A DNA stretch of 64,000 nt from Candidatus Babeliales bacterium (GTDB taxonomy: Bacteria; Babelota; Babeliae; Babelales; JANWKD01). Under the pieces are notes generated by a model, which had not been told where the DNA came from, did no database searches, and saw nothing but the letters and a program-made list of their open reading frames with translations. The stretch spans positions 149,898-213,897 of the forward strand of contig CAVRJM010000001.1 in NCBI GenBank assembly GCA_963722075.1, in the 5' to 3' direction. This document shows, one piece after another, positions 4,663 to 9,706 of this stretch; position 1 is the first letter of the stretch, and each line of letters begins with the position of its first letter. Both the position numbers and the translations under genes were made by a program.

Positions 4663-4986
4663 ATGAAAAACAATAAAATATCTTATTTATTATTATTGTT
4701 AGTTTGTCAAAGCATGCGCGCAATGGAAAATCCAAATCCTGAAAAGGAAGTAAAAAGCGAATATAACCTGCAAGGGCTTGATTTTGCTGATGAAATAATA
4801 TTATCAGCTGCAATACAGAAACTTGAATATTTGAAAAATAATAAGAATAGTATAATCCAAAACTATATAAATAAAGCTGGAATAACCCTGAAAGAGGCAA
4901 CGAATCTATATGACAATAATTTAACAGAAGCTCAGGGCTATTTGGATGAGGTAGTAACGGCGATCAAGAAAGGATTGGGTTACTAA
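4663..4986 (+). CDS. small secreted protein, array paralog P1
   Basis: SD ggagag lies upstream. Signal peptide MKNNKISYLLLLLVCQSMRA|MENP. Core IIQNYINKAGITLKEATNLYDNNL matches the array motif. Confidence 0.7.
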   Translation: MKNNKISYLLLLLVCQSMRAMENPNPEKEVKSEYNLQGLDFADEIILSAAIQKLEYLKNNKNSIIQNYINKAGITLKEATNLYDNNLTEAQGYLDEVVTAIKKGLGY

Positions 4987-4993
4987 CGTAGAA

Positions 4994-5040
4994 GATGCTG
5001 AACAGCATTTAGAAATATAATATCTTGAATGGAGCAAAAA
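4994..5040 (+). promoter_or_regulatory. conserved leader upstream of array paralog (candidate promoter + SD)
   Basis: ..cagcatttagaaatataatatcttgaatggagcaaaaa is near-identical to the leaders at 5664-5723 and 7536-7586. It contains a TATAAT-like box and a GGAG 8-9 nt before ATGGACGG. Confidence 0.35.
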
Positions 5041-5595
5041 ATGGACGGTTATAACAACTATAAAAAATATTTTATTACGATCATAGGTTTATTACTTGCC
5101 ATTTCTTCACTGAATGCGATGCTTTATGATGCGCCTAATAATAATGATAAACGTATCAAAGAAATAGAAGATCATCTGGCCTTCATTAATAATCATATTG
5201 ATGAGTTTATTAAAAGTACTATGAAGCAATTTAATATATCAGAAGAAGACGCTATAGAGTATTATCATCAGCTTGTTGATGGCTACGAAGATGAGATTCA
5301 AAAATTACATGAAAAAGATACGCATCTTGAATATTTCCTGGTATACAATGAGGATCCAGAAAATATTCGTGGCCAATTGAGGGGAATAAATGACGAAATT
5401 ACATATTATGAAAAAGAAAAAAACGATATAATCCAAAATTTTAGTATTGGATATCAGATATCTAAATCAGAGGCACTTGAGCAATATGAAAGGAACTTGT
5501 CCAATTTAAAAGATGAAAGAGACGGGTTATTACTTTTATTGGGACAATTAAAGCCGGAATTAACGGTAGAAGAATACATTAAAAAAATTGAATAA
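5041..5595 (+). CDS. small secreted protein, array paralog P2 (two-module fusion)
   Basis: The start ATGGACGG is conserved with 5724, 7116 and 7587; the ATG at 5029 lies within the conserved SD region. Signal peptide ..IIGLLLAISSLNA|MLYD. The N-half matches P3 and the C-half matches P6. Confidence 0.8.
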   Translation: MDGYNNYKKYFITIIGLLLAISSLNAMLYDAPNNNDKRIKEIEDHLAFINNHIDEFIKSTMKQFNISEEDAIEYYHQLVDGYEDEIQKLHEKDTHLEYFLVYNEDPENIRGQLRGINDEITYYEKEKNDIIQNFSIGYQISKSEALEQYERNLSNLKDERDGLLLLLGQLKPELTVEEYIKKIE

Positions 5596-5663
5596 ACCTT
5601 TTGTATCAAAGAAGAAAAGGGAATAAAATGATGAAAAAGGGTGTGGGAGAACATTAAGGTAGA

Positions 5664-5723
5664 AAATGCTGAAAAATTTCAAGACAGCATTTAGAAATAT
5701 AAGATCTTAAATGGGGTAAAAAA
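5664..5723 (+). promoter_or_regulatory. conserved leader upstream of array paralog
   Basis: aaatttcaagacagcatttagaaatataagatcttaaatggggtaaaaaa is duplicated at 7536-7586. Confidence 0.35.
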
Positions 5724-6011
5724 ATGGACGGTAAAAATAAATTTAAAATGTATCTTTTTATAAGTATGCTTTTGCTTACCCTATCTTCATTGTACGCAAT
5801 GAACTATTACGATCAGCGTATCAAAGAATTAACTGACCATGCGCAATTTATCAAAGACCATGCTGAATATTTTATTAAAAGTCATATGAAACAATTTGAT
5901 GTAGCAGAAGAAGAAGCACGACGCTTTTATAATGAATTGATGGGTAACTTTGAGCGAAAAATTCAAAAGTTATTTCGGAAAAGAGATGAAGTTAAGAATG
6001 TTAAACGATAG
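5724..6011 (+). CDS. small secreted protein, array paralog P3
   Basis: MDGKNKFKMYLFISMLLLTLSSLYA|MNYY; core FIKSHMKQFDVAEEEARRFYNEL. Confidence 0.8.
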   Translation: MDGKNKFKMYLFISMLLLTLSSLYAMNYYDQRIKELTDHAQFIKDHAEYFIKSHMKQFDVAEEEARRFYNELMGNFERKIQKLFRKRDEVKNVKR

Positions 6012-6025
6012 AGAAAGGAGTGATC

Positions 6026-6376
6026 ATGCAAGTACATAAACTATTTTATTTATTAATTTTAATTTTAGGGATTAATTCTGGTATTAAATCGATGGAAAAC
6101 CCATATCCAGAGGGTAGCAGAGAGTTTAGCCGAATGTATGTTCAACAAATACCAGCCAAATATTTAGAAGAAGCATTAAAAAAAGCACAGCAAGACTTTA
6201 TAGTATTTAGAGATGGTAAAGAATCTTTCATTCAACAGGTTATGCATGATTTTGGCTATAATAGGGAAGATGTACAATTCGCTTACGACAAGGAGTTAGA
6301 AGTAAAAGAAGCAATTGTAGATAGTATACAAGAGGCTATCAGAAATATACAAAACATCACCGAAGGTGCAGAATAA
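6026..6376 (+). CDS. small secreted protein, array paralog P4
   Basis: SD aaaggag lies 5 nt before the ATG at 6026; the ORF-track start at 6020 is a GTG inside the SD. MQVHKLFYLLILILGINSGIKS|MENP; core FIQQVMHDFGYNREDVQFAYDKEL. Confidence 0.7.
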   Translation: MQVHKLFYLLILILGINSGIKSMENPYPEGSREFSRMYVQQIPAKYLEEALKKAQQDFIVFRDGKESFIQQVMHDFGYNREDVQFAYDKELEVKEAIVDSIQEAIRNIQNITEGAE

Positions 6377-6417
6377 ACGAGATGAAGAAGGACTGTCTAA
6401 TAAAAAAAGGAGTATTT

Positions 6418-6480
6418 ATGAAGATAAATAAACTATTTTATTTATTTAAGCATGACCTGAAAACCCCATCGGCTTTCTAA
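6418..6480 (+). pseudogene. 5' stump of an array paralog truncated by IS200-like insertion
   Basis: SD aggag precedes ATG, then MKINKLFYLF.., the same N-terminus type as 6026 and 7882 (..KLFYL..). The reading frame then runs into the IS left-end hairpin and stops after 20 codons. Confidence 0.55.
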
Positions 6481-7871: not shown

Positions 7872-7881
7872 GGGGGAAAAA

Positions 7882-8214
7882 ATGAGCTTTAATAAGTTAT
7901 TTTATTTATTTGTATTAATAATGATAATGGGACGTGATGTTTTTGCTATGGAATATACCGGCTTTTATGTTGAGAGTCCAAGCACTACTCAAATTAAATC
8001 TGTAAACGAACAAATTAAAAGTTTGGAAAAAATGATTCAAGGCATAGAAAAAAATAGGGAAAGATTTGTAAACCGTCGGGTAAGGGAAGGGATGACTAAA
8101 GAAGCAGCAGAAATTGATTTTCAGGATTGGCTTGAAAAAAAGAAAGCGCAATTGTATACGCTAAAAAATCCTGATACAGAAGAAAGCTACGTATCGGAAA
8201 TATGGCAAGAATAA
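7882..8214 (+). CDS. small secreted protein, array paralog P8
   Basis: SD aggggg lies upstream of the ATG at 7882. MSFNKLFYLFVLIMIMGRDVFA|MEYT; core FVNRRVREGMTKEAAEIDFQDWL. The ORF-track start at 7813 lies inside the upstream pseudogene. Confidence 0.7.
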   Translation: MSFNKLFYLFVLIMIMGRDVFAMEYTGFYVESPSTTQIKSVNEQIKSLEKMIQGIEKNRERFVNRRVREGMTKEAAEIDFQDWLEKKKAQLYTLKNPDTEESYVSEIWQE

Positions 8215-8239
8215 ATTAAAATGAATTGGAGGAGAAAAC

Positions 8240-8559
8240 ATGAAGATGTTTAAGCTAATTTTTATAGCACTATTATATTGATAAGTAACACTAATCTTAT
8301 TAATGCAATGAAGCGTCCATATCGAAGTGATACCTGGGAAGCTCCAGCTTCATCATTTGTGTTTCAACAAATATATACAGATTGGGATAGAAAAGTTAAA
8401 AATATGGAAGATAATAGAGATCAAGAAATACAGCAATTGACTATTGATAATCCAACTTGGACTTTAGAAGACGTAGAAAATGAATATAATAGAATTTTAG
8501 AAAATGCAAAAGCAAACCGTGAGAATGCAAAGAATCAATTTTTATCCGAGATTTCTTAA
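8240..8559 (+). pseudogene. array paralog P9 with frameshift in its signal-peptide region
   Basis: SD ggaggag plus ATG at 8240 give MKMFKLIFIALLY* . The rest of the gene (8278-8559, ..NLINA|MKRPY.., core IQQLTIDNPTWTLEDVENEYNRIL) is in another frame. One extra T in the T5 run at 8259-8263 would restore MKMFKLIFYSTIILISNTNLINAMKRPY. Confidence 0.6.
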
Positions 8560-8700
8560 TTTTTTACTATTGTATTGCCAAATGAAATTCCAATAAGATT
8601 AGATGGGTAATAAAATATCTCTTGAGCTATTTATGTAAGTATAAATTCTATTATAATAAGGTAATAATAATTATTATATTGTTTTCAATAGGAAATATTT

Positions 8701-9039
8701 ATGAAAATGGCTCATTTTTTTTATATACTTCTTTTTATTAATGGTATTGCAAGTAATGCGATGGAACATTCAGATTCTGAAATTAATTTAATGTTAAAAG
8801 AATATCCTCAAGAATTAGATGAAAAAGAATTTTATGCTGGAATGGTAGGGCTAGCTGATGATCTTGTAGGGATATTGGAAACTAGCAGAGAGGAAGAAAT
8901 AAACAATATAATGAAAAGAGATGATTTATCAATTACTGACGCTAGTCAGCAATATATTAAAACCATTGCATATTGGCGAAATTTTAAAGCTGATTATAAT
9001 AAAAAACTTCAAGAAGTGAAGAATCAAAACAATAGCTAA
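8701..9039 (+). CDS. small secreted protein, array paralog P10
   Basis: MKMAHFFYILLFINGIASNA|MEHS; core INNIMKRDDLSITDASQQYIKTI. Confidence 0.7.
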   Translation: MKMAHFFYILLFINGIASNAMEHSDSEINLMLKEYPQELDEKEFYAGMVGLADDLVGILETSREEEINNIMKRDDLSITDASQQYIKTIAYWRNFKADYNKKLQEVKNQNNS

Positions 9040-9064
9040 ATTTTATATTACATCGAAACATTCT

Positions 9065-9397
9065 ATGAAAATAACGTATTTTTTTTATTTATTACTATTA
9101 TTAGCTGGATATCAAAATTTAATACGATCGATGGAAGCGCCAAAAAAATTATCAATAAGTGAGCGGCGTCGTAACCTAGTGCCATCACGACGTTTTCAGA
9201 ATCCTGATGAAATTATTAAATTGCTCGAAGGTAGCAAAAAGCAAATGATAGAAGAAAAAATGCGTAAAAATCCCGAGATGACGTATCAAATGGCAGAGGT
9301 TGCATATTGCCAACGGTTAGATGAGGTAAAACAGCATCATTCTCAAAGAGCTTCGCCGCCTGAAATTCAAGAATCAAAAAATTCGAACAAACAATAA
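9065..9397 (+). CDS. small secreted protein, array paralog P11
   Basis: MKITYFFYLLLLLAGYQNLIRS|MEAP; core MIEEKMRKNPEMTYQMAEVAYCQRL. The leader aaattttatattacatcga.. is duplicated before 9428. Confidence 0.7.
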   Translation: MKITYFFYLLLLLAGYQNLIRSMEAPKKLSISERRRNLVPSRRFQNPDEIIKLLEGSKKQMIEEKMRKNPEMTYQMAEVAYCQRLDEVKQHHSQRASPPEIQESKNSNKQ

Positions 9398-9427
9398 TTA
9401 AAATTTATATTACATCGAGGTAATTCT

Positions 9428-9706
9428 ATGAAAGTAACATATTTTTTCTATTTATTTCCTTTTTTTACTGCAATGGTTGTAAGACCTATGGAGCATAAAA
9501 GAAATTTTGAGCAAGAGCGAATTAAAACAAGAGCTGATATTGTAATAGCAGTTATTAAGGATCTTATTGGTCATAAAGAAACAACTATTCAACGTATAAT
9601 GAATAATAACAAGCTTACTTATGATCAGGCACAACAAGAATATAGAAATACACTTATGATATGTTCACAAGAATGTTCACAATTGCTTAGCAAAATGAAT
9701 GGATAA
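9428..9706 (+). CDS. small secreted protein, array paralog P12
   Basis: MKVTYFFYLFPFFTAMVVRP|MEHK; core IQRIMNNNKLTYDQAQQEYRNTL. Confidence 0.65.
   Translation: MKVTYFFYLFPFFTAMVVRPMEHKRNFEQERIKTRADIVIAVIKDLIGHKETTIQRIMNNNKLTYDQAQQEYRNTLMICSQECSQLLSKMNG

Follow-up and report, generated by a model that had tools for sequence, protein, structure and literature searches.

A lineage-restricted array of small leader-bearing proteins with a predicted three-helix core downstream of bamA in a Candidatus Babeliales genome

The DNA analysed here (the window) comprises 64,000 nucleotides of contig CAVRJM010000001.1 from a Candidatus Babeliales bacterium (GenBank assembly GCA_963722075.1). Between positions 4663 and 9706 it carries 12 small genes, all on the plus strand, of which nine are intact and three decayed. 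The open reading frame (ORF) listing and direct reading of the sequence agree on this layout, which an earlier note on the same DNA had described, with the 12 loci lying between bamA and a glycosylase gene. These genes are a lineage-restricted multigene family, and their products have a hydrophobic leader followed by a shared core that is modelled as a three-helix bundle. The family had no earlier name and is a new domain family with the signature G-h-[ST]xx[ED]A...Y. The array is probably a lineage-specific secreted paralog family of a small-genome, host-dependent bacterium. Its products may be exported three-helix binding modules with an effector-like role, expanded and pruned at one junction, a reading that we hold with moderate confidence.

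The nine intact genes, referred to below by their start positions, encode proteins of 107 (4663-4986), 184 (5041-5595), 95 (5724-6011), 116 (6026-6376), 123 (7116-7487), 110 (7882-8214), 112 (8701-9039), 110 (9065-9397) and 92 amino acids (9428-9706). The decayed loci start at 6418, 7587 and 8240. In the first protein the leader MKNNKISYLLLLLVCQSMRA|ME precedes the predicted bundle. The mature parts of the array proteins are 68-158 residues long, 25-43% charged, mainly acidic and nearly devoid of cysteine. Gene 5041 encodes two modules, matched by the family profile at 1e-20 and 4e-25. Module A (5119-5325) resembles 5724, with 42-48% identity to 5724 and 7587 by BLASTP, and module B (5326-5592) resembles 7116, with 63% identity; the DNA repeats D2-D4 also fall in 5041.

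The earlier note had proposed that these proteins share one core despite their low overall identity, and had written that core as a sequence motif. Used as a literal regular expression, the motif matched none of the proteins. It is a loose consensus, and profiles were therefore used in its place. MAFFT aligned the same core segment unaided, with or without the leaders. Hidden Markov models (HMMs) were then built with one subgroup left out at a time, from the other subgroups only, and scored against 2000 shuffles of each held-out mature protein. None of the 2000 shuffles reached the real score for 4663, 6026, 7116, 8701, 9065, 9428 or the body of the decayed gene 8240 (scored as 8308), and a single one did so for module B of 5041 (5041C). 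The test was weaker for 7882 (23 of 2000) and for the group formed by 5724, 7587 and module A of 5041 (5041N), for which 48-122 shuffles did so. In hhalign comparisons, this group was in register with the other members (P=2.4e-4) and with a foreign array on a metagenome contig, L006 (P=1.4e-4). The window set as a whole and the independent L006 set aligned exactly on the core, with a probability of 94.5% (P=8.3e-8). When the complete 64-kb window was scanned in six frames, the family HMM matched nothing outside the array. The left-out models and hhalign thus agree with the proposal of a single shared core, and the profile-profile comparison and shuffles do not show the composition-driven coiled-coil artefact that the earlier note had named as the alternative.

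Two members from different subgroups, mature 4663 and mature 7116, were modelled with AlphaFold2 from a 16-sequence alignment, a check that the earlier note had suggested. The 4663 model has a mean predicted local distance difference test score (pLDDT) of 92.6 and a predicted template modelling score of 0.79, with helices at residues 6-14, 21-39, 41-52 and 56-82. In the 7116 model the first ~15 residues are disordered and helices follow at 20-39, 41-52 and 56-84, with a pLDDT of 95-98 in the core. The two helix layouts are concordant. On these models, the conserved unit is a long-short-long three-helix bundle of about 65 residues: helix 1 is long, helix 2 spans 12 residues and is followed by a G-h-[ST] turn, and the long helix 3 contains a near-invariant Tyr. 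The Ser/Thr-x-x-Glu/Asp-Ala of the turn is predicted to cap helix 3, and Ala and Tyr are the near-invariant core positions. The earlier note was right about a shared core, but its helix-loop-helix module of about 30 residues was too small: that motif extends from helix 2 through the G-h-[ST] turn to the middle of helix 3. Between the leader and the bundle lies a short, disordered N-terminus that is often acidic or proline-rich.

The window profile was run exhaustively against 1.84 billion representative proteins with hmmsearch and returned 15 of them at E<=1e-3: ten from the window and P0011, P0012, P0013, P0014 and P0015. P0013 is a further copy of the family in the same genome, and P0011 and P0014 are proteins of the 8.7-kb contig L006. 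The HMM search proposed in the earlier note thus placed members among these representatives only in this genome and on L006. Proteins of the window genome or the L006/L007 lineage were likewise the only ones returned when 5.8e9 proteins were searched by word index, with the window profile and with the enlarged profile, and 80 metagenome loci anchored on the glycosylase contained no family member. In these searches the family was found in two related lineages only. A literature search on the accessions found nothing.

The two remaining proteins were rejected as members. P0015 is a coiled-coil repeat protein and a spurious match. P0012 has neither a leader nor helix 1 and gives many faint HhH and HTH matches. 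It is a 439-residue leaderless protein (8001-9320 of L088, an unrelated metagenome contig) with six tandem 33-residue repeats, RNLMRYNGITFEQVNQLYEQSPEKLEKIADISV, which align with the helix 2-loop-helix 3 part of the family profile (summed E=4.8e-6). We treat it as a resemblance at the level of the hairpin, reflecting either homology or convergence on a capped helical hairpin.

L006 carries eight small genes with leaders, all in the same orientation and converging on the glycosylase ortholog, and all eight match the family HMM. The L006 glycosylase is 66% identical to that of the window, and it is followed by GT28 (69%), DUF2062 (75%), SmpB (82%) and ThyX (78%) proteins. In a neighbour-joining tree, the array proteins formed clusters within each lineage, and no one-to-one orthologs linked the window and L006 arrays. 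Such a lack of orthologs, although the flanks are 66-82% identical, implies either fast birth-and-death turnover or very fast sequence divergence. In another relative (L008), the C-terminus of BamA is 82% and the glycosylase 63% identical to those of the window, and the junction between the two genes holds a single 117-residue gene unrelated to the family. The product of this gene (962-1315, minus strand in the locus) combines a leader with a second hydrophobic segment and has a Cys that may be lipobox-like. Two distant loci anchored on bamA in metagenome-assembled genomes (L003 and L004) have other genes after bamA and lack the family there.

The three decayed loci differ in how they were damaged. 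Pseudogene 7587-7871 is a copy of 5724, with 80% amino acid identity and 84% DNA identity over 300 nt (repeat D1), and has TAA at 7686-7688 where 5724 has AAA. In the frameshifted locus 8240-8559, the leader ORF (8240-8281) closes after 13 codons at the stop 8279-8281; the body is read in a different frame, starting at 8278/8308 and ending at 8559, and scored 28 bits in the left-out HMM. At 6418-6450, only the first 11 codons (33 nt) of a gene are left, a leader remnant beginning MKINKLFYLFK that shares 81% identity with the beginning of 6026 (repeat D9) and runs directly into an insertion sequence (IS). When the IS is conceptually removed, the frame still ends after 21 codons, so the body of 6418 has been lost and not merely interrupted.

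The inserted element (6451-7010, plus strand, right boundary approximate) is of the IS200/IS605 type by the two features looked for, a Y1 (HUH) transposase and a subterminal hairpin at the left end. Its tnpA gene (6574-6960) matches Y1_Tnp across the full profile at E=9.9e-42, and the left end forms an imperfect hairpin at 6447-6505. The GC content of the element is 42%, compared with ~30% in the surroundings. TTAAG occurs at both junctions, and the element is present in a single copy in the window.

A segmental duplication links the two halves of the array. Direct-repeat analysis showed that 5350-5989 is repeated at 7242-7852 (plus strand, spacing ~1863-1892 nt) with 76-84% identity (D1 84%, D2 76%, plus D3, D4 and D8). 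The block 5041/5724/6026/6418 therefore corresponds to 7116/7587/7882/8240. Gene 7116 is the single-module counterpart of module B of 5041, and either the two modules of 5041 were fused or 7116 arose through loss of the first module. The three genes with an "MDG" leader are each preceded by a 40-nt element, ACAGCATTTAGAAATATAAGATCTTAAATGGAG, on the plus strand at 5002-5041, 5684-5723 and 7547-7586 (repeat D8, 75-90% identity), which is presumably a promoter together with the ribosome-binding region. A scan for promoters and terminators performed no better than on shuffled sequence. The earlier note had described duplication, fusion and decay of copies, and the four-gene segmental duplication, the two-module gene 5041, the nonsense codon, the frameshift and the IS200 insertion bear this out. 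The array grew at the bamA/glycosylase junction by tandem duplication, the four-gene segmental duplication and apparently a module fusion, and it is being pruned by nonsense mutation, frameshift and IS200 insertion, with the remaining copies under purifying selection.

Near-identical array sequence is present in two other public assemblies, apparently from the same organism. In one 1826-bp contig (L001, GCA_052916205.1), the 7116 gene is joined to sequence that shares 99% identity with the 5724-6026 region. We considered L001 as carrying an intact copy of pseudogene 7587 and rejected this because of the 99% identity to the 5724 region. It most likely reflects collapse of the segmental duplication in a short-read assembly and not a structural variant.

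The earlier note had also called the array diversifying and suggested an estimate of the ratio of nonsynonymous to synonymous substitution (dN/dS). Whole-gene Nei-Gojobori estimates for young pairs were 0.11 (5724 and 7587), 0.25 (5041C and 7116) and 0.24 (5041N and 5724), rough figures because dS was 0.9-1.4 and near saturation. They indicate purifying selection on the young copies and do not support that description, and the low ratio further indicates that the nonsense mutation in 7587 is recent.

Each member had been said to carry a leader, and leaders were indeed seen in all of them. Of the 12 leader ATGs, all except that of 9065 are preceded at 5-10 nt by a GGAG-like ribosome-binding site, and no such site was found by direct reading at the conserved internal Met codons examined. 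The sites before the leader ATGs indicate that the hydrophobic leaders are translated. A signal peptide for Sec export and signal peptidase I begins with a basic region, continues with 10-20 hydrophobic residues and has small residues at positions -1 and -3. Judged by rule of thumb, all 11 readable leaders have a basic start and a hydrophobic stretch; the residue at -1 is A, S or G in ten of them and P in 9428, and L, I, V, S or M predominate at -3.

A frequent ending among these leaders is [AGS]|M[DE], in many cases with (P/N)-x-x-P after it. For the counts, leader-bearing ORFs were detected heuristically. In the window, the ending occurs in 13 of 23 leaders, all 13 belonging to array members, other ORFans or ankyrin proteins; besides the array, it was noted at 12041+, 18273-, 21703+, 51645-, 56344+, 58499+, 59025+ and 63678+. 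None of BamA, the SurA-like protein, the lipoprotein and the other housekeeping or membrane proteins of the window that were detected with a leader has it. The ankyrin-repeat proteins with the ending are encoded by 51645-53438 and by a split gene at 21682-22820. In the latter, a leader-bearing ORF (21682-22092, plus strand) overlaps the start of an ankyrin-repeat ORF (22077-22820, plus strand) in another frame, and the two look like one frameshifted secreted ankyrin gene. In the relative L003, the ending is present in 6 of 13 leaders (noted across 11190-15391), including those of five tandem ankyrin paralogs beside bamA, where the likeness extends to "MEPEKPD", compared with "MEPDKPS" in gene 7116. 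These paralogs (11795-15391, minus strand; 205-259 residues, leader ...YG|ME...) are a different expanded family of leader-bearing, secreted ankyrin-repeat proteins at a similar genomic position. In the other metagenome loci, 13 of 177 leaders have the ending, far more than the ~0.7% that a rough estimate gives for chance. No description of a leader motif in Dependentiae came up in a literature search. The [AGS]|M-[ED] end could be a lineage-specific sorting signature that marks effector-class Sec substrates for onward export from the periplasm or to the host, but we consider this doubtful.

In the functional reading that we prefer, the leaders would route the proteins through SecYEG, and signal peptidase I would cut after the conserved small residue, leaving a mature Met-Glu or Met-Asp in most window members. 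Once outside the cytoplasm, the bundles would serve as small adaptor modules that bind other proteins, most likely as effector-like cargo directed at the host or the environment. This direction is suggested because ankyrin-repeat and other ORFan proteins of this genome and of a relative have the same leader end, whereas BamA, the SurA-like protein and the lipoprotein do not. An effector role is a plausible hypothesis.

Work on the Dependentiae gives this reading a context. Signal-peptide-bearing ankyrin proteins and secreted ORFans have been described there as a putative host-manipulation apparatus, and Chromulinavorax destructans combines a small low-GC genome with many Sec signal peptides, enriched in ORFans (PMC6561590). 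The features of the window resemble this lifestyle, namely a contig of 1.42 Mb, a GC content of ~32%, ThyX, and ankyrin and Sel1 proteins. However, the same study describes no family homologous to the array (PMC6561590), and the three-helix family was found in only two lineages. A second likeness is to the phytoplasma effectors SAP54/PHYL1 (phyllogens) and SAP11, which also consist of a signal peptide and a helical mature protein of ~70-100 residues, are lineage-restricted and multi-copy, and lie in regions with mobile elements. These effectors act through binding of host proteins. There is no sequence similarity between them and the array proteins, and the PHYL1 structure (6inr) was a non-significant Foldseek match (E=5.5). 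Moreover, phytoplasmas have no outer membrane, so that Sec export suffices, whereas the array proteins would need a further step across the outer membrane.

Several observations weigh against an effector role. Three of the 12 copies are decayed, which indicates that individual members are dispensable. The dN/dS values, whole-gene estimates with dS near saturation, are below 1 and give no sign of the arms race expected of many effectors. The window contains no recognisable machinery for secretion across the outer membrane, and the leaders are predictions by rule of thumb. Host association is read from the 1.42-Mb contig, its ~32% GC content and its ankyrin and Sel1 proteins. Six of the eight L006 members have no Met at +1, so the leader signature is not intrinsic to the family. 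Finally, the position on the same strand directly after bamA fits an envelope role equally well.

That envelope role would make the proteins housekeeping factors, namely periplasmic helpers of the Skp or Spy/CpxP kind (anchored in the inner membrane if the leader is uncleaved) that are linked to BamA and co-transcribed with bamA. We regard it as possible but rather unlikely. The first array gene starts 78 bp after bamA (1831-4584, plus strand; five POTRA domains, Pfam E=4.5e-59, and Omp85, E=2.7e-39) on the same strand, the interval shows no terminator-like site, and skp follows bamA in many Gram-negative bacteria. Like Skp/OmpH and Spy/CpxP, the array proteins are small, charged and helical and have leaders, the young copies are under purifying selection, and the turn h-T-x-x-[EQ] recalls the LTxxQ motif of CpxP/Spy, a resemblance that serves as a lead only. 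However, neither OmpH/Skp nor LTXXQ was found in Pfam even at E<=1. Skp/OmpH (PF03938) has a beta-barrel trimerisation core with long helical arms, whereas the array models have no beta strands, which Skp needs for trimerisation. CpxP/Spy (PF07813) has two LTXXQ motifs, whereas each module of the array family has one h-[TS]-x-x-[EDQ] cap. Skp is commonly found as a conserved single-copy gene directly downstream of bamA; here there are 12 divergent copies, three of them pseudogenes, without orthologs across lineages, which is atypical of a housekeeping factor. The family is also absent from this junction in relatives, including L008 with its closely similar BamA, and L003 and L004 carry other genes there.

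It is less probable still that the array encodes periplasmic immunity proteins, including orphans, against polymorphic toxins of competitors that act in the periplasm. Clusters of immunity genes against polymorphic toxins typically consist of small helical paralogs that lie in tandem and have diverged, and the leaders would place the proteins in the periplasm. In addition, a 753-residue ORFan (12291-14552, plus strand) overlaps a 114-residue ORF (14552-14896, plus strand) 2.6 kb downstream of the array. The layout of this pair, neither of which has a Pfam match, is like that of a toxin and its immunity protein or an effector and its chaperone. However, the 753-residue protein has no recognisable toxin domain and is separated from the array by two genes on the opposite strand. 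No toxin gene adjoins the array, which is flanked by bamA and by the convergent HhH-GPD DNA glycosylase gene (9735-10553, minus strand; Pfam E=2.8e-16), and neither a Pfam immunity family nor PADLOC matched its members. The reduced size of the genome (1.4 Mb) and its wealth of ankyrin and Sel1 proteins also suggest a host-dependent life with little interbacterial warfare.

The earlier note had recognised no named domain in the core and had called its shape vaguely UBA-like. The first statement held up. Searches of Pfam and NCBIfam with individual members gave only sub-threshold coiled-coil noise, no Pfam family recurred in more than two of 20 members, and scans of PHROGs and PADLOC found no match. 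The profile matched none of the PDB sequences below E=0.026 (EsxB was at ~0.2), and Foldseek searches of PDB with both models and of BFVD with one gave best E values of 0.34-1.2, none significant. The top Foldseek matches were generic helical bundles, namely DgkA, segments of terpene synthases, Esx and PHYL1. The likeness to WXG100/Esx proteins lies in helical hairpins of ~100 residues, often encoded as tandem paralogous pairs, and in weak, non-significant matches to EsxB and EsxOP. WXG100 proteins (PF06013) lack a Sec leader, have a W-x-G turn and use type VII secretion, whereas the array proteins have leaders and a G-h-[ST] turn and do not match WXG100 in Pfam.

The UBA comparison did not hold up, and a UBA/CUE-like module secreted to bind host ubiquitin is a very improbable identity for the core. 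The pattern h..hM..[FY]G-h-[ST]..EA...Y...L superficially resembles the UBA "MGF" loop region, both are small bundles in which a Gly-hydrophobic turn joins a helix to a capped helix and an aromatic residue or Leu is conserved, and the UBA domain of Swa2p (1pgy) was matched weakly (E=0.093). However, no UBA, CUE or TS-N domain appeared in Pfam at E<=1 for ten window proteins, UBA families were absent from the 25 most frequent Pfam families across the 20 members, and no UBA domain was among the top 50 Foldseek matches of either model, all of which had E>=0.6. A UBA domain is compact (~45 residues, three short helices and two loops), whereas the array bundle has predicted helices of ~20, 12 and 27-29 residues in a long-short-long topology, with a continuous helix 3 in place of the second loop. 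Hardly credible, finally, is the suggestion that unrelated AT-rich ORFs only seem to form a family, their common core being a coiled-coil artefact of composition: identities between pairs of proteins are often 10-28%, the literal motif matched no protein and the weak Pfam matches are all to coiled-coil families, but against this stand the shuffle-controlled tests, the foreign members matched at E=3e-6 to 5e-5 in 1.84e9 proteins with hardly anything else, the alignment in register between independent sets (P=8e-8), the absence of six-frame matches in other window ORFs, the concordant high-confidence models and the purifying selection on young duplicates.

The family is very narrowly distributed, and its general importance is therefore limited. 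The two syntenic arrays nevertheless allow the birth, fusion and decay of genes in a reduced genome to be followed almost event by event. If the proteins are envelope factors, they would be lineage-specific accessories of outer-membrane biogenesis. If they are exported effectors, as we prefer to read them, they would be candidate host-interaction factors of a poorly studied, uncultured small-genome lineage. If the sorting signature is also real, the leader end would be a bacterial analogue of the host-targeting motifs that follow the signal peptide in eukaryotic parasites (RxLR, PEXEL), and the three-helix family would be one expanding cargo class of that pathway, beside the ankyrin-repeat proteins. 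The shared [AGS]|M[DE] end could then, if these proteins are effectors, become a handle for predicting the whole secretome of the lineage.

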